Assembly: GCA_037131775.1 (NCBI GenBank)
Contig: JBAXQK010000003.1
Location: 76,439 to 140,438, forward strand
DNA length: 64,000 nt
Direction: 5' to 3'
Origin: Candidatus Uhrbacteria bacterium
GTDB lineage: Bacteria > Patescibacteriota > Patescibacteriia > UBA9934 > GWF2-40-263
In this document: positions 12,287 through 64,000 of the stretch, one piece after another
Layout of the letters: each line of letters opens with the position of its first letter
Numbering within the stretch: position 1 is the first letter of the stretch
Made by a program: the position numbers and the translations under genes
The notes under the pieces: generated by a model
Told to the model about the DNA's origin: nothing
Seen by the model: the letters and a program-made list of their open reading frames with translations, nothing else
Databases searched by the model: none

Positions 12287-12874
12287 CTAGGAAATCATGA
12301 ACCGTGCGAACCGGGCCACCTGGATGTTTTCCCCAATCGTGGAGATCTTTCCCTTGATGTACTCGCTGACCGTCAGGTCCTCGTCCTTGATGAAGGTCTG
12401 CTCCATCAGGCAGATTTCGCCGAACCACTTGTTCAGCTTGCCCTCGACGATCTTCTCGACGATTTCGGCCGGCTTGGCCTGCTCGGCCACCTCGGCGCGG
12501 AACAGTTCCTTCTGCTTCTCGACCAGGTCCTGCGGGACGTCCTCGCGGCGGACGTAGAGCGGGTCGGCGGCTCCCACGTGCATGGCGACGTCGTGGCAGA
12601 GCGCCCCGAACGCCTCGTTGCGGGCCACGAAGTCGGTCTCGCAGAGGATCTCGACCATCGCGCCAAGCTTGCCGTTGCCGTGCAGGTACGCGTGAACCTT
12701 CCCTTCCTTGGTCTCGCGCTCGGCCTTCTTGTCGGCCTTGGCAAGCCCCTTCTCCTGGAGCTTCTCCGCGGCAACCGTCAGGTCGCCGTTGGCTTCCTCA
12801 AGGGCCTTCTTCGCGTCCATCATTCCGGCACCGGTCATTTCGCGCAGCTGCGCGACGAGCTTTGCATCGATCAT
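12287..12874 (-). CDS. tsf: elongation factor Ts (short form)
   Basis: 195 aa; MIDAKLVAQLREMTGAGMMDAKKALEE... Downstream of rpsB. Confidence 0.9.
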   Translation of the reverse strand: MIDAKLVAQLREMTGAGMMDAKKALEEANGDLTVAAEKLQEKGLAKADKKAERETKEGKVHAYLHGNGKLGAMVEILCETDFVARNEAFGALCHDVAMHVGAADPLYVRREDVPQDLVEKQKELFRAEVAEQAKPAEIVEKIVEGKLNKWFGEICLMEQTFIKDEDLTVSEYIKGKISTIGENIQVARFARFMIS

Positions 12875-12904
12875 AATGAAAGATCTAAATGGTTGGTTTG
12901 AGAA

Positions 12905-13654
12905 CTACGCCGCCTTCGCCGGGGTCGCGGCCACCTTCGCGGCCTCCACGGCCTTCAGGTTGCGCATCGCCTCCGCCTTTCCTTCCGTAACGGCCTCGGC
13001 CACGAGGCGGGTGATCATCTCAATCGCCTTCACCGCGTCGTCGTTGGTCGGGATGACCATGTGTACGCCGCTCGGGTTCACGTTGGTGTCGCACATGGCG
13101 ACGACCTTCGTACCGGTGGTGTTGGCCTCCATGACCGCGGTCTTCTCGGTGCGGATGTCCACCACGAAGATCGCCTCCGGCGGCTTCTCAAGCATCTGGA
13201 TTCCACCAACCTTGTGCTCCATCTCCTCGATCTCGCGGCCGAGGACGATCTGCTCCTTCTTCGTGTACTTCTTCAGCTCGCCCTTCTCGCGCTGGTCCTT
13301 CAGCGAGCGGAGGCGCTTCAGCGTGACCTTGATCTGCGGGAAGTTGGTCAGCGTTCCGCCAAGCCAGCGCTCGGTCACGAACGGCATACCGCACTGTTCC
13401 GCGTACTTGCGCACGATCGGCTGCGCCTGGCGCTTGGTTCCGACGAACAGCACGTTGCCGCCGCGGGCCACCACGGAGCGAACGTACTCCAGGGCCTCCG
13501 GAAGCATCTTCTGCGTCTTCTCAAGGTCGACAATGTGAATGGATCCGCGCGATCCGAAAATATACGGCTTCATCTTCGGGTGCCAGCGCGACGTCTGGTG
13601 ACCAAAGTGAACGCCGGCCTGGAGCATCTCCACGAGCGAAGGCAATTTGCCCAT
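12905..13654 (-). CDS. rpsB: 30S ribosomal protein S2
   Basis: MGKLPSLVEMLQAGVHFGHQTSRWHPKMKPYIF... RBS AAGGAAAA 9 nt upstream. Confidence 0.93.
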   Translation of the reverse strand: MGKLPSLVEMLQAGVHFGHQTSRWHPKMKPYIFGSRGSIHIVDLEKTQKMLPEALEYVRSVVARGGNVLFVGTKRQAQPIVRKYAEQCGMPFVTERWLGGTLTNFPQIKVTLKRLRSLKDQREKGELKKYTKKEQIVLGREIEEMEHKVGGIQMLEKPPEAIFVVDIRTEKTAVMEANTTGTKVVAMCDTNVNPSGVHMVIPTNDDAVKAIEMITRLVAEAVTEGKAEAMRNLKAVEAAKVAATPAKAA

Positions 13655-16108: not shown

Positions 16109-17191
16109 ATGAACCTCATCGACGAGCTCACAAAGGTGAAGTCGCGTCAGAAAGAGCTCGAGACACTATTGAGTGACTCGAGCGTTCTTTCTAATACGGC
16201 GAGATTGCGCGAGGTAAACACGGAGTTCGGCGACGTGTGCGAGACTGTCGCGATTGGCGACCAATACGCCAGGGCCGTCTCGGACCTGAAGAGCGCGGAA
16301 TCGGCGCTTGCGAACGAGGCCGACCCGGACATGCGACAGATGGCGCTCGACGAGATCGCGCTCGTGAAGGGCCGCCTCCCCAAGCTGGAGGAGGACTTCA
16401 CGCTGGCACTCGTTCCGCCCGACCCGCTCGACAAGAAGAACACCATCGTGGAAATTCGCGCGGGCGCCGGCGGGGACGAGTCCGCGCACTTCGCGGGCGA
16501 GCTGTTCCGGATGTACACGCGGTATTCCGACGCGCAGGGATGGAAGATCCATCTTATCTCTTCGAGCCGCAACGACCTGGGCGGATTCAAGGAAGTTATC
16601 TTCTCGATGGAGGGAAAGAACGTGTACAGCCGCATGAAGTACGAGAGCGGCGTGCACCGCGTCCAGCGCGTCCCGGAAACCGAGAAGGCCGGGCGCGTGC
16701 ACACGTCGACGGTCACGGTCGCGATCATGCCGGAGGCCGAGGACGTGGACGTGAAGATCGACATGAAGGATTTGCGCATCGACACGATGACGTCGAGCGG
16801 CGCGGGCGGGCAGAGCGTGAACACCACGTACTCCGCCATCCGCATCATCCACATTCCCACGGGAATCATGGTGCAGTGCCAGGACGAGCGCAGCCAGACG
16901 CAGAACAAGGAGCGCGCCATGACGGTTTTGCGCGCCCGCCTGTTCGCGTTCGAGCAGGAGCGCGTGCGCAAGGAGCGCGAGGACAAGGTGCGCGGCCAGA
17001 TCGGGCATGGAAACCGGTCCGAGAAGATTCGCACGTACAACTTCCCGCAGGACCGCCTCACCGACCACCGCATCGGCCAGAACTTCCACAACCTGCCAAA
17101 AATCATGGAAGGCGACATCGACGAGATCGTGAATGCGCTCAAGACCGCCGAGCTGAATAATGCGTTCTTGGAAAACGACACGGACGACTGA
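16109..17191 (+). CDS. prfA: peptide chain release factor 1
   Basis: [18 protein letters not shown]...; GGQ motif [12 protein letters not shown]; RF1-type [17 protein letters not shown] 16109 is 4 nt after the rpmE stop. Confidence 0.92.
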
Positions 17192-19884: not shown

Positions 19885-19932
19885 GTCGCGACGACCACCC
19901 CTGTCCCCTCCTGCCTATCAGGAGGGGGAACG
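19885..19932 (+). repeat. palindromic repeat element P, copy 3 (inverse orientation, compensatory C/G swap)
   Basis: gtcgcgacgaccacccctgtCCCCTCCTGcctatCAGGAGGGGgaacg. This is the reverse complement of copy 1 except for a compensated stem position. Confidence 0.85.
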
Positions 19933-19934
19933 TT

Positions 19935-21050
19935 TTAGGGGGAGGACTCGGCCACCGTTACGTCGCTCTCGTCCGCCGCGACCTCGATCCAGGAGTTTCC
20001 CGCGTTCATCGCGATCTCCCTCCCGTCCTTGTCGTAGAACGCAAGTCGCTCGCTCGCGGACTGTTTCTTCCAGGTCGCGTCGATCGTCGCGCCGTCCTGG
20101 AGAACCCACGCCTTCCCTTCTCCCGTCGTGCGGATCTTGCGCCGTCCGACCGCGTCGAGGACCGACACGTCAGTGACGATCACCGCGACGTTATTCGCCG
20201 AGACGCGCGTGCCGTCCTGCGTGACAGTCTTGCGGCCGCCTTGGGCGCGGAGATAGGTATTCGTCGCGGTATCGTATGTCCACATTGCGACGTAGAGGTC
20301 GGAATTGAATCGGACGGAGATCGAGTTCTGCCAGACGGCGTCGGGCGCGGCGTCGGTCGACCCCGGCGTGACGAACGTCTTGGCGCCGTCCTTGAACTTC
20401 CACACCCCGTACAGCACGTCCGACGCCGTTCCCTTCTCCTCGGCCTTCGCAACCGCGGCCGCGAGCAGGTCCGTCGACGTGTAGGCATTGTGCGGCGCCG
20501 ATCTGTCGGCGGACCTCCAGAAGCTGTTGCCGTGGGAGAATTCGTTCAGGTCAAACGTTCCCGTCGAGCCGATGAGCGCGAGGGCGTCGTTGGAACCGCC
20601 GACGTGGGCGTAGAGCGCGTCGAACTCGCTGGCCCAGTCGACGAAGTACGGCCGGGCCGATCGGACGGGACCGATCTTGTCGACCTTGGCGTCGGCCGAG
20701 AAGAACGCCTCGAACCTCGGGATCGCGGCCTCGACCGGCGCCTCGATGACGAGGAAGGCTTTGTCGATGCCGCTCTGGGGCCAGGCATCGACGGAATTAT
20801 CGATCATGACGGCGTAAACGCGAGGGAGAATGTCGACGGGCTCGACGATCGGGAGACCGGTGAGGACGTCCCGGAATGTCGGTTCGGACGGGGCGATGAC
20901 CTCACCCTGTCCCTCTCCTTTTGAAGGAGAGGGGAGCTCGGCGAGCGGGGTGACGTGCCAACGCCATGCGATGAAAACAAACGCAAGCGCCAGAATGATG
21001 GCGCCTGCGATTGCGTGCTTGCGGGTGAATTTACTTTTTGGCCGGGGCAT
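19935..21050 (-). CDS. secreted/membrane-anchored protein, DUF3048(YerB)-like
   Basis: N-terminal signal anchor KHAIAGAIILALAFVFIAWRW. The track start 21131 overlaps rplY; a later Met (about 21050) is more likely. Confidence 0.55.
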   Translation of the reverse strand: MPRPKSKFTRKHAIAGAIILALAFVFIAWRWHVTPLAELPSPSKGEGQGEVIAPSEPTFRDVLTGLPIVEPVDILPRVYAVMIDNSVDAWPQSGIDKAFLVIEAPVEAAIPRFEAFFSADAKVDKIGPVRSARPYFVDWASEFDALYAHVGGSNDALALIGSTGTFDLNEFSHGNSFWRSADRSAPHNAYTSTDLLAAAVAKAEEKGTASDVLYGVWKFKDGAKTFVTPGSTDAAPDAVWQNSISVRFNSDLYVAMWTYDTATNTYLRAQGGRKTVTQDGTRVSANNVAVIVTDVSVLDAVGRRKIRTTGEGKAWVLQDGATIDATWKKQSASERLAFYDKDGREIAMNAGNSWIEVAADESDVTVAESSP

Positions 21051-21723
21051 CTTTCTTGGCATCCTTTCCTTCCGCGTCATCGCCGGCCTTCTTGGCCTTC
21101 TCAACCTTCTCGATGGCCGTGACGTCGACAACGACCTTCTTCGTCAGCTCGTCCATCTCGGCGTCGGAACGCGGGGCGGCCACGAGGGCGACCACGGCGT
21201 TCTCGTCCTCGAGAACCTCGACGGCCTTGGAGATGTTCAGGTCCTTCACCTTGATGACGTCGTCGAACGTGGCGAGCGCGGAGATGTCCACCTCGATGAA
21301 CGAGAGGAGATCGCCCGGGAGCGCCTTGATGCGCACCTCGTCCATCGGCTTCACGAGCGTACCGCCCAGGCCCTTGACGGCCGGCGACTCGCCCAGGAAG
21401 TGAAGCTTTACCTCGGCCTCGATCTTCTTCGTCATGTCGACGGCGCGGAAGTCCACGTGCGTGAACTCGTCGCGGAGCGGATCGGTCTGCGTGGCCTGGA
21501 TCAGCACGTGCAGGTCCTTGGCGCCATCGACGGAAAGCTCGACGATCGTCGATTCTCCGGCGCTCTTGAGCACCTTGGCGAACTCATTGTGCACCACCTG
21601 GATGTTGAGCGGCTCCATGCCGGCGCCGTAAACGACGGCCGGAATGACGCCCTCGTTGCGGATGTGGTAGTTCTTGCGACCCATGTGGACGCGCTTCTGT
21701 GCCGAAAGGATTGTTTTATCCAT
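21031..21723 (-). CDS. rplY: 50S ribosomal protein L25 / general stress protein Ctc, with K-rich tail
   Basis: MDKTILSAQKRVHMGRKNYHIRNEGVIPAVVYGAGMEPLNIQV... matches the Ctc/TL5 family. ATG 21721-21723. Confidence 0.85.
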   Translation of the reverse strand: MDKTILSAQKRVHMGRKNYHIRNEGVIPAVVYGAGMEPLNIQVVHNEFAKVLKSAGESTIVELSVDGAKDLHVLIQATQTDPLRDEFTHVDFRAVDMTKKIEAEVKLHFLGESPAVKGLGGTLVKPMDEVRIKALPGDLLSFIEVDISALATFDDVIKVKDLNISKAVEVLEDENAVVALVAAPRSDAEMDELTKKVVVDVTAIEKVEKAKKAGDDAEGKDAKKDAPAKK

Positions 21724-31632: not shown

Positions 31633-34600
31633 CTACTGTGCGATCGACGCGATCTGCGTGCGCGTCTTGACCGCGGACAGGTCTACCGACTCCGGGACCG
31701 TCACGTCCTCGCCGCGCTCGTAGTGGGCGAAGAGGGTGGGCTCGAGGTCGATGACGTCGTCGGCCCAGGATGCGCCGAACATTTCCGTCGCGACGGATTC
31801 CGAGACGATGTGGCGGAGGAGGAAGGTTCCGTTCGCGTCCGCGTCCACGAGATAGACGTTCGGGTCGCTGACGATCTTGACGAGCACGACGCCTGGCTTC
31901 GGGAGCATCGGGGAGCCCAGCGCGAGGGTCGGCATGGTGGCGTCGGTGACCCAGACCACGTTGGACCACGAGTCCGTCCAGGTAAAGAAGGTCTGCGCGT
32001 TCCAGAAGACATGGCGTTTCCCGTCCGCGCCGACGTAGTACACGCTGCCGCTGCCGGACGATCGGATCAGCCAGCCGGGCTCCACCGCCGAGACGGACTG
32101 GGACGCCTGGCTGAACGGAGAGACACCCGTGTCCGACGTCACGGGGGCGACATGGCGGCCTTCCGCGTCAACTGCAATGCCGTTCTCGCGGATGGTCTCG
32201 GGGGAAAGCGACACGACGGACGGGACGGTCCCCATGCCCGACGAGGAAATTCCCGTTGCTGACGCAGCCGACGGCGTCGCGGCCGGAGCGCCGCCTCCCC
32301 CGCCCCCGCCCCCGCTGCTGCGGCGCGCGGCAACCGTGACGGTCACGACGTAATCGACCGTCGACTCGTCCTCCGCGAACACCGTGTACGTCACGGGGTC
32401 TGTAAAGTCCTGGGCGTCGCCCGTCGACGGAACGGTGAACCATCCCGTCGTCACGATGGTCGGAACGAGATCCGTCACGTCCGTGCCGAACGGGACGCGG
32501 AGCGAGATCGTCTTGGAGCCCTCGTGCACGCTGCCCGTGACGTCGAGGTCGCCGAAGTCGAAGGACTCGATCGCCTTGTCCGAGGTCGGAATCGTCGTCA
32601 CCGTGTAATTTACCAGCGTTTCGCCGTCCTCCGCGAAGACAGCCAGCCAGTCTCCGGTCACGACGGGGTCGGAGAGGAAATCCTCGAGCCAGTTCTGATG
32701 AGGCTCGTCCTTCGTCAGCGCGGCAAGGAAGTCGGCCTTCGACGTTCCGGGCGGAACGTCCGTAATCGTCTCGCCGTCCGTCCCTCCCGCGCTGACCGTG
32801 TACGTCTCCGACGAGATCGTCGCGACGGTGCTGGCCGGGAGCGCGAGGACGGCGAGGACGAAGTCCTTCGTGTCGGACGCGAGGCCGTTCGTGATCGTCG
32901 CGGTCATCGTGACCGTCGCGTCGCCATCCGCAAACGCCGGGCGGACGACCGTCTGCCCGTTGTCGGAAACGATGTCCGCGTCGCTCGAGGACCAGGTGAT
33001 CGTCGACGCGTTCACGGAACCGACCGATGGGAGCGGGTTCTCAAGCGCAACCGTCACGTCCGCCAGGTCGGCATTCTCCCCGAGGATCGCCTCGTCCGTC
33101 AGCCCGTCCTTGTCCGCCGCGACGAGAACCGTGTCCCCGACGGACAGGAGCGCGTTGTTCGCGTTGATCCTCTTTCCCGTCGTCGTCACCCCGTCGAGCG
33201 ACGCGATCGGATCGCCGGACGTCAGAATGATGTTCTTGACCTGCGCCGCCGTCAGGCTCGGATCATACCCTTCGATGAGCGCCGCGAGGCCGACCACGTG
33301 CGGGGTGGCCATCGACGTCCCGTTGAACCAATCGTACAGCGCGGCGGTGCCGTCCTGGTCCGGATAGGTGAGGAGCGTCACGTCATCGACCGCGCAGCCG
33401 TTCCCGCCGCCGACGTCCGCGTTCCCATTCGCGACCCAGCGGAATCGAAATTTGAAATTGTCCGTGAGATACTCCGCGGGAACATCGACGCTGGCGTATC
33501 CGATCGCCGATCCGGTCGGATCGCCCTCGAAGTCGTCCAGAACCACCTCGTCCCAGCGCGTGTATTCCTCATACGTGTCTCCCCCGTCGGCGCTAAACTC
33601 CAAGGCCATGTAGTCGGCCCAGTCGGTCAGGTCATACTCCGTATCGCACGCGGTCCAGAATTCCATCGTGGTCGCGCCGCCGCTCAGGTCGTACTCCGGC
33701 GACTCGACGGTCGTGTCCGCCGTCTGCGCGTACGGGGACGCAACGTCGCCCTTCAGGACGTTTCCCCAGCCGTCGCCAAGCCATTCCGTCGCCTCGGACA
33801 CGCCCCAGGCGTTGCCATCGCCCGCCGCCGCCCAGTCGCCCGGAATCGCGGCGGTGTCCACGCCCTCGAACGACTGCGAAAGCAGGCTCGTCCCGCTGTC
33901 ATCGACGACCGTACTGTAGATATCCGTGCCCGGCGCGCCGACGTCGACGTACCCGGAACCGTAGTCAGAGAAATACGCCAGTCCGTCCGACGAGTCGGTC
34001 GCCGCGACGGAAATGACGTTCGCGAGGCCGTCCCAGCAGTCCGTCGCGTGGCCGTAGTCGGAGGGAAGGTCGACGTACGAGGAGCCGTCATGCTCGCTCG
34101 CGTCGTTCCCGGCGGCCGCGACGAACAACCCCGGAAACCCGTCGATCGCCGCGTACAGCGCCTCGTCATACGCGCCGTCGCACGACCCGGCGGCCCCGCC
34201 CCAGCTCGCGTTGATCACCGTCGCGCCGTTATACGCCGCGAAGCTGATCGCGCGGACGATCTCGGCCGTGGTGAGCGATGACTTCAATGCCATGATCTTC
34301 GCGCGCGGCGCCACGCCGGCGATTCCCGTCGCGTTTCCTTTCACGGCCGCGATCGTCCCGGCGACGTGCGTCCCGTGCGTGCTCGTCGTCGGCAGAGGCG
34401 TCTTGTCGAGGTCCTCGAAGTCATAGCCATGGTCGCATCAGCCGAGCGCCGCGTTCGCGTCGTCCACGCAGCCCGTCCCGTCCCACATGTTCGCGGCAAG
34501 GTCCGGATGGTCGTACGCCACGCCGGTGTCGATGATCGCGACGATCACGTCCCCGTTCGTCCCCTCGTCGACCGCCCACGCCTCGGGCGCGTCGATGTCC

Positions 34601-35160
34601 GCACCCGTCGTCCCGGTGGTCCCGTTCACCGTCTGCCCGGTGTTGTCCAATCCCCAAAGCTCACCGCGAGACGGATCGTTCGACGAGATTTCCTGCGTCT
34701 CGTATTGAAAGTTCGGCTGGACGTACTCGACGCTCGGGTCGACGCTCAGTCGGGCAACTGCGCTTTCGACAGACTCGCTCCGACCCTTCGCGTCCTTTCT
34801 CGTCGAAAACACGGAGATGTTCCCCTTGGCGATGTCCTCTTTCTTTTCCAATCTCTTCGATTCCGCAAACTGGCGCGACTTGAGAGCGCCCGTCCTCGTT
34901 CTCAGGTTAACGGATCGATCTTTGAACTTCACGACGACCTCGCCCTCGACATAGTTCTTCTGCGCTTCCGGCCGTACTTTTTCCGTCGACTCCCCACGGT
35001 TCCCCTCCTCATAGGGAGGAGGGGTCAGGGGTGGTCGTCGCGCGTCATCGACGGAAGCGAGAACAAGCGTCGATGACGAGCCAACGACGAACGAGACGAT
35101 TCCCAGGACCAGCAATCCCCGGCACAGCGCTTTCACGGACGTTGTCATATGGATTCTCAC
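31633..35160 (-). pseudogene. S8 subtilisin-like serine peptidase, interrupted by one in-frame TGA at 34438-34440
   Basis: N-terminal ORF 34441..35160: signal peptide, I9-like propeptide, Asp motif VAIIDTGVAYDHPDL, ending ...NAALG then TGA. The same frame continues CDHGYDFEDLDKTPLPTTSTHGTHVAGTIAAV... into ORF 31633..34344, with the His motif HGTHVAG and the Ser motif GTSMATPHVVG. About 1175 aa if read through. Also carries repeat-element copy 2 in frame near the N-terminus. Confidence 0.8.
34999..35044 (-). repeat. palindromic repeat element P, copy 2 (inside subtilase coding region, in frame)
   Basis: ttCCCCTCCTCatagGAGGAGGGGtcaggggtggtCgtcgcgcg. Encodes ...RRPPLTPPPYEEGN... on the minus strand. 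Confidence 0.85.
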
Positions 35161-36222: not shown

Positions 36223-36687
36223 TTATTTTTCTGTGATTTCCGCCTCATGCTCGGCGTTCCATTGGTCGATGGACCGCTGAAGCACGTCGACGGCATGGGT
36301 ATCGAGAACGTCGTCCGCATGGGAGCCTGGCAGGGTGGCGGCCCGCCGCGAACCCGGATACACCTCGGTAATGCGGAAGAAGCCGTCTTCCCGCTGGATA
36401 TCCATTGCCACGCGGAAGATGATCGGCGCCTCGAGTCCCTTCTTCGCGGGAGGAAGCATGTTGCCGAATCCGACGATCTTTCCAGAAAGGCGATTCACCA
36501 TCGCGTTCGCCCCGGCCGCCGGATATCTCTTCCCGTCGACGACGACCGATCCCGCGTTCCCGCCGATCGATTCCCCGTTCAACAGCTCCACCATTGCCGT
36601 GTCCATCAGCCGTACGTTGTCGCGGATTACCTCGCCCTTCAGTGCCTCCGCCTCCCTGCCGGACATCGCGTCGAATGATTCGGACAT
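36223..36687 (-). CDS. hypothetical protein (about 154 aa)
   Basis: GC3-rich. Sits between the deaminase and the DHFR-like gene. Confidence 0.5.
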   Translation of the reverse strand: MSESFDAMSGREAEALKGEVIRDNVRLMDTAMVELLNGESIGGNAGSVVVDGKRYPAAGANAMVNRLSGKIVGFGNMLPPAKKGLEAPIIFRVAMDIQREDGFFRITEVYPGSRRAATLPGSHADDVLDTHAVDVLQRSIDQWNAEHEAEITEK

Positions 36688-36691
36688 ATCC

Positions 36692-37203
36692 TTACGCCTT
36701 AAAGCGCAGCAAAATCCCGCCGCCAAGAGGCTTCGCCTCGACGAGCGTCAGGTTCATCCTCCCGAACCCGGACGCGAGCGGAACGCCGTCGCCGAACAGG
36801 ACCGGCTCGACGGTAAGAAACAGCTCGTCGACGAGGCCGGCCGCGAGGAATTGCGAGTAGATCATCGATCCGCCGCAGACCGCGAGGCCCGTGAGCCCCT
36901 TCTTCGAGAGACGCGCGACCAGCTCGGCCGGCGTCTCCCGCGTCCACTCGACCCCGTCGCGCCCATCGAATTTCTCCGTATCCGATCCTCCCGTCGACGA
37001 CATCACGATTGTCCGGCGATCCTTGAGCGGTCTGCCAATGGTCTCGAACGTCTTGCGCCCCATCACGACGGCGCCGATGTCCTTCGTCTTGTCGGCAAAG
37101 AACCGCGTGTCTTCCTTCGACGTCCAGTCAAGCGACGACTGCTTCGCGTTCTGCGCGATCTTTCCGTCCGCGGAGATGGCGGCGATGATGGTTATTTTCA
37201 TAC
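36692..37203 (-). CDS. dihydrofolate reductase family protein (FolA / RibD-C-terminal-domain like)
   Basis: MKITIIAAISADGKIAQN...VVMGRKTFETIGRPLKDRRTIVMSS... ATG 37201-37203. 6-nt overlap with thyA. Confidence 0.75.
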
Positions 37204-63199: not shown

Positions 63200-64000
63200 T
63201 TATTCCTCCGTTCCCGCGGGAGCTCCCGCCCGACCCGATTTCCATTCCTCGACGACGGCCGCGATTTCCCGCTCCGTAACCTGCGGCGCGCCGTCCTTCA
63301 TGCTGATTCCGCTTCCCTCCATCAGGTCCTTCACGTGCGACTCAAGCGCCCGCTCGGCCTTCTCGATGCCGATGTCCGAAGGAAATTCCTTCTTCAACGT
63401 CGCCAGGTGGACGAGCTCCTCCTTGAGCGCCACCGCCTCCGTCTCGGATCTCCGCCTCGACGCCTCGTTCAGCACTCCGAGCGCAACCTTGTGCCCGAGC
63501 GCCGCCTCGATGGAGACGGTCGCGGCGGCCTCGTCGATGAGGTCGATCGCCTTGTCGGGAAGGAAGCGACCGACGATGTGCTTGATGGAAAGGTCCACGG
63601 CCGCCGCGAGCGACGCGTCCGTGATCTGCACGTGGTGGTGCTTCTCGTAGACGGGACGCACCGCGCGGAGAATCTCGAGCACCGCCTCGCGCGATGGCTC
63701 CCCCACCACGACCGGCTGGAACCGGCGGTTCAGCGCGTCGTCGGGCTCGATCAGTGATTTGTACTCGCGGAAGGTCGTCGCCCCGATGGCGGCCAGCTCC
63801 CCGCGAGAGAGCGCCGGCTTCAGAATGTCGGAAACGTTCATGGCCCCCTCGGCCCCGCCCGCCTGCTCGAGCATGTGTACCTCGTCGATGAACAGGATCA
63901 CCGTGCGGTTCGCCGCCTGCAGCTCATCGGTGAGGTGCTTCATGCGCTGCTCGAACTCGCCGCGATACTTCGTGCCGGAGATCATGCCCGGAAGGTCGAG
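63200..64000 (-). CDS. Clp/Hsp100-family AAA+ ATPase (D1-type), N-terminus beyond window end
   Basis: ...SGTKYRGEFEQRMKHL...ILFIDEVHML...AIDLIDEAAA...QVTEREIAAVVEEW, then stop. No D2 domain follows. Confidence 0.7.
   Translation of the reverse strand, partial: LDLPGMISGTKYRGEFEQRMKHLTDELQAANRTVILFIDEVHMLEQAGGAEGAMNVSDILKPALSRGELAAIGATTFREYKSLIEPDDALNRRFQPVVVGEPSREAVLEILRAVRPVYEKHHHVQITDASLAAAVDLSIKHIVGRFLPDKAIDLIDEAAATVSIEAALGHKVALGVLNEASRRRSETEAVALKEELVHLATLKKEFPSDIGIEKAERALESHVKDLMEGSGISMKDGAPQVTEREIAAVVEEWKSGRAGAPAGTEE

Follow-up and report, generated by a model that had tools for sequence, protein, structure and literature searches.

The interrupted subtilase gene

The 64 kb window (the whole stretch of 64,000 nucleotides that was analysed) comes from a MAG of Candidatus Uhrbacteria, an uncultured CPR bacterium. 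On its minus strand lies the reading frame of a large subtilase, in which a single in-frame TGA occurs at codon 237 (Table 1); no second stop and no frameshift was found across its 1,171 codons. The domains of the frame follow in the order signal peptide, fervidolysin-type N-propeptide, S8 catalytic domain, aBig_2, DUF5018-like region, poly-Gly linker and C-terminal domain, with Pfam matches to PF22148, PF00082, PF20578 and PF16410. The match to PF00082 (Peptidase_S8) has an E-value of 3.7e-46 and 158 bits, against a cut-off of 21.8, and one alignment to this family (residues 200-413) crosses the stop unbroken. An earlier reading of the letters alone (the sequence-only reading) had described a lone TGA splitting an otherwise whole S8 subtilase, and the translation and the Pfam alignment bear this out.

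Table 1. Features of the subtilase locus in the 64 kb window
Feature	Positions	Strand	Details	Basis
Complete subtilase reading frame	31633..35148	-	1,171 codons including the in-frame TGA, plus terminal TAG	translation; Pfam; full-length collinearity with intact orthologues
In-frame TGA, codon 237	34438..34440	-	mRNA ...GCG CTC GGC TGA TGC GAC CAT GGC... = A L G stop C D H G	translation
N-terminal ORF, 236 aa	34441..35148	-	ATG at 35148; signal peptide, propeptide, Asp box (Asp207 at 34528-34530)	
In-frame remainder after TGA	31633..34437	-	His258 34375-34377, Asn348 34105-34107, Ser612 33313-33315; TAG 31635-31633	
Weak hairpin TCGAG-GAC-CTCGA	34406..34418	-	5 bp stem, 3-nt loop, begins 20 nt after TGA	
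Palindromic repeat copy, ~50 nt	34990..35043		core CCCCTCCTCATAGGGAGGAGGGG at 35002-35024; in-frame insertion just after signal peptide	

The catalytic residues appear in the order D-H-N-S, in the motifs IIDTGV (Asp207), HGTHVAG (His258), AAAGND (Asn348) and GTSMATPHV (Ser612). All four are conserved in the orthologues, and an insert of about 260 aa separates Asn348 from Ser612 within the catalytic domain. Under the standard code they are not brought together in a single polypeptide, the TGA sitting between Asp207 and His258 and parting the Asp from the His and the Ser. The sequence is that of an S8 gene, but it is predicted to give no active S8 enzyme.

The N-terminal ORF, which holds the Asp box IIDTGV, ends in ...DGTGCVDDANAALG, and directly 3' of the TGA the same frame goes on as CDHGYDFEDLDKTPLPTTSTHGTHVAG... 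(flanks of the TGA codon AALG-x-CDHGYDFEDLDK). The translation thus agrees with the earlier statement that the His box follows the TGA in frame. In GenBank this ORF is MEI6510869.1, “hypothetical protein WCO25_02385” (a 100% match to P0029), and the downstream CDS is MEI6510868.1, an S8 family serine peptidase of 920 aa starting at 34395, a position derived by hand from its length and apparently a CTG codon. The internal GTG at which the sequence-only reading let the downstream ORF begin was located at 34344; it is an alternative gene-caller start and gives 903 aa. The downstream part alone has neither signal peptide nor propeptide nor catalytic Asp. The two GenBank CDSs are the halves of one gene, and MEI6510869.1 and MEI6510868.1 should be annotated together, as one pseudogene or internal-stop gene.

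The TGA is followed by 934 in-frame codons at a GC3 of 0.88. After the 15 other TGA-terminated ORFs of the window the extensions reach at most 92 codons, the longer ones at a non-coding GC3 (0.42-0.44). The split frame is not a chance juxtaposition: no other TGA in the window has a long in-frame stretch of coding type behind it. No second split gene was found in the 64 kb. Two sorts of candidates were rejected: same-frame neighbours parted by TAA or TAG, with Pfam hits, are distinct genes (miaB and miaA, dUTPase and tmk, thrS), and an apparent plus-strand split with a series of in-frame TAG and TGA (12291-13538) is the antisense of rpsB and tsf.

The gene also carries, as noted earlier, a copy of a repeat element, with a palindromic core; this copy encodes RRPPLTPPPYEEGNRGE and is absent from the orthologues L008 and L010. 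Three copies of the repeat are present in the 64 kb, the other two lying just 3' of stop codons in a terminator- or REP-like placing. The sequence-only reading saw here a locus in flux. The copy is indeed an insertion missing from these two orthologues, but it stays in frame and is not itself disabling.

The site of the stop in orthologues and in a second assembly

Three Uhrbacteria orthologues (L008, L009 and L010) are single intact ORFs of 1,078-1,276 aa, with identities of 95%, 91% and 79% respectively over the catalytic domain. The sequence-only reading had proposed comparing the residue at this position between orthologues; the codons found are GGG (Gly) in L008, GCG (Ala) in L009 and GAC (Asp) in L010, and in none of the three are there two separate genes. 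Close relatives thus have an intact gene with a sense codon where the window has TGA. Since the alignment with the orthologues shows no indel at the site, the change is a substitution.

Among 148 homologues the column holds G (106), N (17), D (12), S (6), E (3), A (2), T (1) and V (1), and neither Cys nor Trp. The earlier placing of the TGA in a loop between the Asp and His boxes is supported by the alignment, in which it falls inside an insertion relative to thermitase. Alignment with thermitase and deseasin points to a surface loop, which the residues of the column show to be variable.

One base difference would suffice to create the stop and the sequence is a MAG consensus; the true population could then have a sense codon such as GGA, the TGA being an artefact of sequencing, assembly or consensus, as the sequence-only reading had also envisaged. 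This is distinctly unlikely. An ENA assembly contig (L001, 25.8 kb, a MEGAHIT k141 contig by its record name) has the identical TGA and is 100% identical to the window across the whole gene; it departs from the window 2.2 kb away, where a 240-bp tract at the end of folA has 46 differences. Because this contig differs near folA yet has the TGA, two assemblies resolving different haplotypes agree on the stop, with the reservation that both may derive from one sample or from related ones. An identical 236-aa ORF is moreover recorded under NCBI, JGI/IMG and ENA sources, and in a short-read consensus at normal coverage substitution errors are rare. Exact-pattern scans of JGI metagenome contigs returned no conspecific allele with a sense codon, and a full-length protein search returned no intact protein above 87% identity.

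Decoding of UGA

At least seven Pfam-verified genes of the window end on TGA: gpmI, GAPDH, prfA (RF1), dCMP deaminase, thyA, miaA and a PAP2 protein. For gpmI, GAPDH, prfA, miaA and PAP2 the Pfam or NCBIfam match reaches to within 7 positions of the profile end; for thyA it stops at 238/266 and the C-terminus was judged by eye. The in-frame extensions beyond the stops of the TGA-ending genes are short or non-coding in composition. The sequence-only reading had taken TGA for a genuine stop elsewhere, quoting the end of gpmI (...EEMTGAPLV-TGA), which we confirm, and had argued against global recoding, with which these verified genes agree. Global recoding of UGA was ruled out by the survey of stop usage together with the Pfam and NCBIfam matches, most of which reach the domain end. 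RF1 (the prfA equivalog) is the only release factor found in the window, and no tRNA gene was found in the 64 kb.

Code 25 is known in other CPR lineages (PMC8629427). The protease homologues in code-25-type genomes are rich in TGA (19 in the L005 ORF), and at the site of the stop Gly is the commonest residue, the closest orthologue having GGG. A UGA read as Gly as in code 25, an ambiguous intermediate decoding or a relic of transfer from a code-25 donor would suit these observations, and we nevertheless consider it scarcely credible. About 64 kb hold one in-frame TGA, whereas one gene from a code-25 genome has 19; far from being unused as a terminator and recurring in frame at Gly positions, UGA ends at least seven verified genes. 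The column is also variable, the next orthologues having Ala and Asp, so that agreement with Gly counts for little. As to transfer, the gene is syntenic with sense-codon Uhrbacteria orthologues, is 79-95% identical to them and has a GC3 (0.88) like that of the host genome; it was therefore inherited vertically and not recently imported. Two truncated-looking homologues (P0020 and P0023) considered in connection with a code-25 donor lie in fragmented code-25-type genomes of 41-46% GC, while the window gene is Uhrbacteria-like, and this origin was rejected. The case calls for caution: an in-frame TGA at a mostly-Gly site in a CPR genome resembles code 25, and the orthologues and the stop usage show otherwise.

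Selenocysteine, another option of the sequence-only reading, would be inserted at the UGA under the direction of a downstream SECIS. The in-frame UGA and the 5-bp hairpin that this reading had pointed out, and which is present, are in its favour, but the hairpin is not a SECIS-like element. For the 81-nt downstream region the MFE is -18.2, whereas shuffled sequences average -22.0 (z = +1.34); 187 of the 200 shuffles fold at least as well, so that no stable SECIS stem-loop is seen 3' of the UGA. The only Rfam match (E = 9.8) is to an unrelated sRNA, and the tRNA scan detected no tRNA-Sec in the 64 kb window. Selenocysteine positions align with Cys in homologues. Here the UGA is aligned with neither Cys nor Sec (Cys in 0 of 148 homologues and 0 of 3 orthologues), at a surface-loop residue without redox role. 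We know of no report of selenocysteine machinery in Parcubacteria-type CPR genomes. The selenocysteine reading is effectively refuted.

Programmed read-through, also listed earlier, is not supported: the stop and its context are not conserved, all three orthologues having sense codons, and no structure was found. Another reading is a leaky stop. If near-cognate tRNA-Trp or tRNA-Cys, or else a suppressor tRNA, read the UGA at a low but useful level, some full-length protease would still be made and the gene would stay under selection. The 3.5-kb frame is otherwise perfect, with no relaxed selection on the window lineage; the loop tolerates G, N, D, S, E, A, T and V, so that nearly any inserted residue would be acceptable; and the allele is present in two haplotypes. 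Against this, the stop is conserved in no orthologue, no stimulatory structure lies downstream, housekeeping genes of the same window terminate on UGA, and the intact frame is equally explained by a recent mutation. The stop is followed by U, and in E. coli termination at UGA-U is comparatively efficient. Taken together these points make functional leakiness unlikely. Still less probable is a further reading, in which a suppressor or near-cognate tRNA inserts Gly, Trp or Cys at the UGA often enough to matter physiologically, so that the protease is still made although this CPR lineage lies outside the code-25 clades. The undecayed gene and the tolerant site are compatible with it, but nothing speaks for it positively; if true, the codon would be a tolerated “ambiguous” UGA, a state that has been proposed as the opening step in the reassignment of UGA to Gly. 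Our literature search returned no paper linking Uhrbacteria with stop-codon recoding. A bypass by frameshift or reinitiation was discarded: the overlapping ATG (UGAUG, seen by eye) opens an ORF of 5 codons only, and the subtilase continues in frame 0.

A putative young pseudogene and its relation to known systems

Single-base changes could create a stop at 310 places in the frame. The chance that no second nonsense mutation had arisen is 0.13 at a neutral divergence of 0.02 and 0.006 at 0.05. Downstream of the TGA, dN/dS relative to L008 is 0.156, and the window lineage has 86 synonymous and 45 non-synonymous changes versus 98 and 62 in the intact L008 lineage; no relaxed selection is visible on the window lineage in this part. 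We infer that the mutation is recent because there is neither a second lesion nor relaxed selection downstream, and a pseudogene so free of decay fits only a very recent event. The lack of decay fits a still-functional read-through gene equally: selection tests cannot part recent loss from continued translation.

A lineage-specific, recent nonsense mutation, giving a young pseudogene or null allele, is in our view very probably what the TGA represents. This possibility was among those of the sequence-only reading, and the intact sense-codon orthologues, the ordinary termination of other genes on TGA and the lack of a recoding signal support it. What counts against it is that pseudogenes are considered uncommon in the streamlined genomes of Patescibacteria. 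The most economical path would start from a Gly codon GGR and reach TGA, presumably by way of GGA, through one G-to-T change in its first base. The substitution would have fallen in a variable loop on the surface of a secreted or cell-surface S8 subtilase, whose gene was inherited vertically within Uhrbacteria. With UGA an ordinary terminator, translation should end after residue 236, and the product would be a fragment made of signal peptide, propeptide and Asp box, probably devoid of protease activity. The 3' part is intact, yet without signal peptide, propeptide and catalytic Asp it would not be expected to give an active enzyme. Given an inactive fragment and a 3' part deprived of the catalytic Asp, the locus would thus be a very young pseudogene, or a null allele of the population, split into two CDSs by gene callers. 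Its relatives keep this large secreted or surface protease under purifying selection, and the population has probably just lost it or has a null allele of its gene; such a loss may bear on the host interaction of these presumed episymbionts.

Among solved structures the best matches of the window subtilase are deseasin MCP-01 (3vv3, E 2.3e-35) and thermitase (1thm, E 1.1e-24). It shares the canonical Asp-His-Asn-Ser order with S8A subtilases of the thermitase, deseasin MCP-01 and fervidolysin type, and the type of its N-propeptide with the last. It differs from thermitase-type subtilases by a Cys-loop-Cys insertion between the Asp and His boxes, which holds the TGA, by the insert of about 260 aa from the oxyanion Asn to the catalytic Ser, and by a long C-terminal extension (aBig_2, DUF5018-like, Gly run and a conserved C-terminal domain).

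The repeat copy, as distinct from the TGA, recalls the Rickettsia palindromic elements (RPEs), which are inserted in frame into coding genes: it is a short palindrome of about 50 nt, in several copies, one of them in frame in a tolerant linker of a gene. Unlike RPEs, it has only three copies in the window, two of which are 3' of stop codons, and it has no sequence relationship to them.

With bacterial selenocysteine recoding (fdhF-type UGA and SECIS) the locus shares the in-frame UGA, but its homologues lack Cys at the site, the RNA downstream forms no stable stem-loop, and the residue has neither a catalytic nor a redox role. With genetic code 25 of Gracilibacteria and Absconditabacteria it shares a CPR host and a UGA at a mostly-Gly position; here, however, UGA works as a terminator, and there is one in-frame UGA in about 57 genes versus about 19 in code-25 protease homologues (PMC8629427).

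The closest likeness in kind is to the ordinary nonsense pseudogene or internal-stop split gene that annotation of bacterial genomes flags, with its single premature stop, uninterrupted sense-codon orthologues, no recoding signal and two adjacent CDSs in the same frame. The chief worth of the case lies in annotation. The window gene departs from the ordinary case in showing no further decay, as a very young or segregating null allele would, and in lying in a streamlined CPR genome.

The interrupted subtilase frame

Masking the stop of the subtilase frame gives a product of 1,171 residues. Its N-terminus carries a signal peptide and a fervidolysin-type N-propeptide (PF22148, Pfam), the Peptidase_S8 alignment (PF00082, E 3.7e-46) runs across the TGA, and an aBig_2 domain and a DUF5018-like region are found in addition. 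The catalytic set is complete: Asp207 (IIDTGV), His258 (HGTHVAG), the oxyanion Asn348 (AAAGND) and Ser612 (GTSMATPHV). The sequence-only reading had placed the TGA between the catalytic Asp and the His and Ser, and this is what the translated frame shows; the GTG start, the small hairpin and the repeat copy that it had reported in the same gene are also present. The frame contains no second stop or frameshift.

The oxyanion Asn and the catalytic Ser, ~65 residues apart in subtilisin BPN', are separated here by an insert of about 260 residues (~349-611). The orthologues and many CPR homologues keep this insert, with motifs DTEY...DYMALEFS...FRFRW...GNGC.VDD, which forms a domain of unassigned function.

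Features of the window and genes ending on TGA (profile positions from Pfam/NCBIfam)
Feature	Position	Strand	Detail
Subtilase reading frame	ATG 35148 to TAG 31635-31633	minus	one frame, one interruption
In-frame TGA	34440-34438	minus	GCG CTC GGC TGA TGC GAC CAT GGC (A-L-G-stop-C-D-H-G)
Hairpin downstream of TGA	34418-34406
GTG start of downstream ORF	34344
Asn-Ser insert	33316-34104	minus
Palindromic repeat, copy 1	1586-1632
Palindromic repeat, copy 2	19905-19927		core
Palindromic repeat, copy 3	34990-35043
RF1/prfA	16109-17191	plus	ends on TGA; match to 343 of 347
gpmI			ends on TGA; 2-251 of 252
GAPDH			ends on TGA; C-terminal domain, 1-158 of 158
miaA			ends on TGA; 1-243 of 243
thyA			ends on TGA
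dCMP deaminase			ends on TGA
PAP2 protein			ends on TGA
In-frame stop series	12291-13538	plus	antisense of rpsB and tsf
AAA/AAA_lid_9 ORF	63200-64000	minus	stops at TAA

Origin and age of the TGA

A scan of GTDB species representatives gave three Uhrbacteria orthologues, L008, L009 and L010, with catalytic-domain identities of 95%, 91% and 79% respectively. L008 and L009 have the same neighbours (thyA / dCMP-deaminase / dCTP-deaminase, by ORF sizes and order), while the position of L010 near a contig end limits its comparison to the downstream neighbour. Each is one unbroken ORF (1,078-1,276 aa), and the aligned codon is GGG (Gly) in L008, GCG (Ala) in L009 and GAC (Asp) in L010. Because the alignment has no indel, the TGA of the window is a substitution. 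In 148 more distant homologues, all with the Cys-loop-Cys motif, the position preceding the second Cys is occupied by Gly in 106, Asn in 17, Asp in 12, Ser in 6, Glu in 3, Ala in 2, and Thr and Val in one each; neither Cys nor Trp occurs there. Thermitase (1thm) lacks the whole WDGTGCVDDANAAL-G-x-C stretch, which is inserted after the strand of the Asp box and before the GWDF strand, and the TGA therefore lies in a loop. Searches for conspecific alleles that carry a sense codon at this site found none.

A contig from a second assembly (L001; ERZ27300037 k141_1275240, 25.8 kb, ENA) encodes the same pair of ORFs (236 and 903 aa) and shows 100% identity with window positions 36612-31438. The 46 differences all fall within 36613-36851 (~240 positions; 85-323 in L001), where folA (DHFR) reaches its 3' end and the following ORF begins; both alleles are intact there. 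Since L001 carries the same pair and differs near folA, two assemblies resolving different haplotypes agree on the TGA, and a consensus error at this codon is unlikely. The folA segment, beside which identity spans 5.1 kb within the same species, has the appearance of a strain-variable stretch or of a short tract exchanged by recombination.

A stop would arise from any of 310 single-base changes in the frame; the chance that no second nonsense mutation has occurred is 0.36, 0.13 and 0.006 at neutral divergences of 0.01, 0.02 and 0.05 respectively. The part 3' of the TGA has a dN/dS of 0.156 against L008 (dS 0.35). Polarising the changes in this part against the outgroups L009 and L010 gives 86 synonymous and 45 non-synonymous changes for the window lineage and 98 and 62 for the intact L008 lineage, the expected neutral non-synonymous to synonymous ratio being ~3. 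By a rough estimate from these counts, the neutral share of the window branch would be a few per cent at most, and since so little of it can be neutral the TGA mutation would be recent. The selection data fit equally a subtilase that is still translated, which these tests cannot separate from recent loss.

UGA as a stop and the recoding alternatives

Stops were surveyed with a composition-based gene list of the 64-kb window, in which TGA terminates 16 ORFs. Only the subtilase TGA precedes a long in-frame stretch of coding type (934 codons, GC3 0.88); extensions past the others reach at most 92 codons, the longer ones having a non-coding GC3 of 0.42-0.44. Pfam and NCBIfam confirm the seven TGA-terminated genes of the table as real; in five of them the profile match ends 7 positions or fewer short of the domain end. 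The match of thyA ends at 238/266, and its C-terminus (...MKVQIAV) is canonical ThyA-like by eye; gpmI ends ...EEMTGAPLV-TGA, as had been read from the sequence. TGA is a stop in the genome of the window.

Stop usage in the heuristic list (TAG 22, TAA 19, TGA 16) is approximate, as a few antisense false ORFs are included; for a 62% GC genome the TGA share is low and the TAG share high. The prfA gene (equivalog, 480 bits) encodes release factor 1, and RF2 was not found within the window. Same-frame neighbours with Pfam hits separated by TAA or TAG (miaB/miaA, dUTPase/tmk, thrS and others) are distinct genes, and the plus-strand stop series is antisense. No interrupted gene besides the subtilase was found in the 64 kb.

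In code 25 UGA is read as Gly (PMC8629427). Gly is indeed the commonest residue at the site, and the nearest non-Uhrbacteria homologues (loci L002-L007, including proteins P0020 and P0023) come from genomes of 41-46% GC, where genes are broken up under code 11. With TGA as Gly the L005 copy is a single ORF of 1,396 codons spanning 19 TGAs, hence these genomes are of the code-25 type (Gracilibacteria/Absconditabacteria-like). The window genome, however, terminates on TGA and has one in-frame TGA only, and its subtilase is vertically inherited within Uhrbacteria with the GC3 of its host. The match to Gly is accounted for by the nearness of GGA to TGA, a single mutational step, at a position that is tolerant and rich in Gly. 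Code-25-like decoding is thus extremely improbable.

Selenocysteine insertion deserves practically no credence: homologues have no Cys at the site, Rfam gives no support, and the 81 nt from the TGA onward have a folding energy of -18.2 kcal/mol, weaker than the shuffle mean of -22.0 (z = +1.34), 187 of 200 shuffles folding at least as well. Programmed read-through is not supported, the stop being neither conserved nor accompanied by any stimulatory structure, and functional leaky read-through is unlikely. That a CPR lineage with code-25 clades among its relatives tolerates the UGA, or decodes it ambiguously, is the sole reading of real interest; this analysis gave it no positive support and we consider it highly improbable.

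Probable outcome, and other elements of the window

UGA ends translation in this genome, and a premature one separates the Asp box of the subtilase from its His box. Ribosomes would release a 236-residue fragment with signal peptide, propeptide and Asp box. The 3' part, even if begun at a weak internal CTG or GTG (the gene-caller starts), would lack the export signal, the catalytic Asp and the propeptide, which in subtilases is a folding chaperone. Neither part would be expected to yield an active protease. We hold it probable, as the best of the readings, that the locus is a very young pseudogene or null allele. Events of this sort are ordinary, and the main consequence concerns annotation. 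MEI6510869.1 ('hypothetical protein WCO25_02385 [Candidatus Uhrbacteria bacterium]'), on a 142.6-kb contig, has the same sequence as the N-terminal ORF, and MEI6510868.1 ('S8 family serine peptidase', 920 aa) corresponds to the downstream part: one subtilase gene of this Uhrbacteria (Patescibacteria/CPR) MAG, of 62% GC, is annotated as two CDSs, which should become one disrupted gene.

The ORF with AAA and AAA_lid_9 domains, its N-terminus cut by the window edge, resembles the D1 half of Clp ATPases. It stops ~70 residues past the lid with no second AAA domain, an unrelated CARDB/DUF11 protein coming directly next, and could be a Clp-type ATPase that is truncated or unusual.

The palindromic repeat (~50 nt; CCCCTCCTCATAGGGAGGAGGGG then TCAGGGGTGGTCGTCGCG) has three copies, against none expected by chance. 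Two lie just 3' of minus-strand stop codons, those of gpmI and of the gene at 19935-21143. The third is in frame within the subtilase, past the signal peptide, encodes RRPPLTPPPYEEGNRGE and is absent from L008 and L010; Rickettsia palindromic elements are inserted in frame in a similar way.
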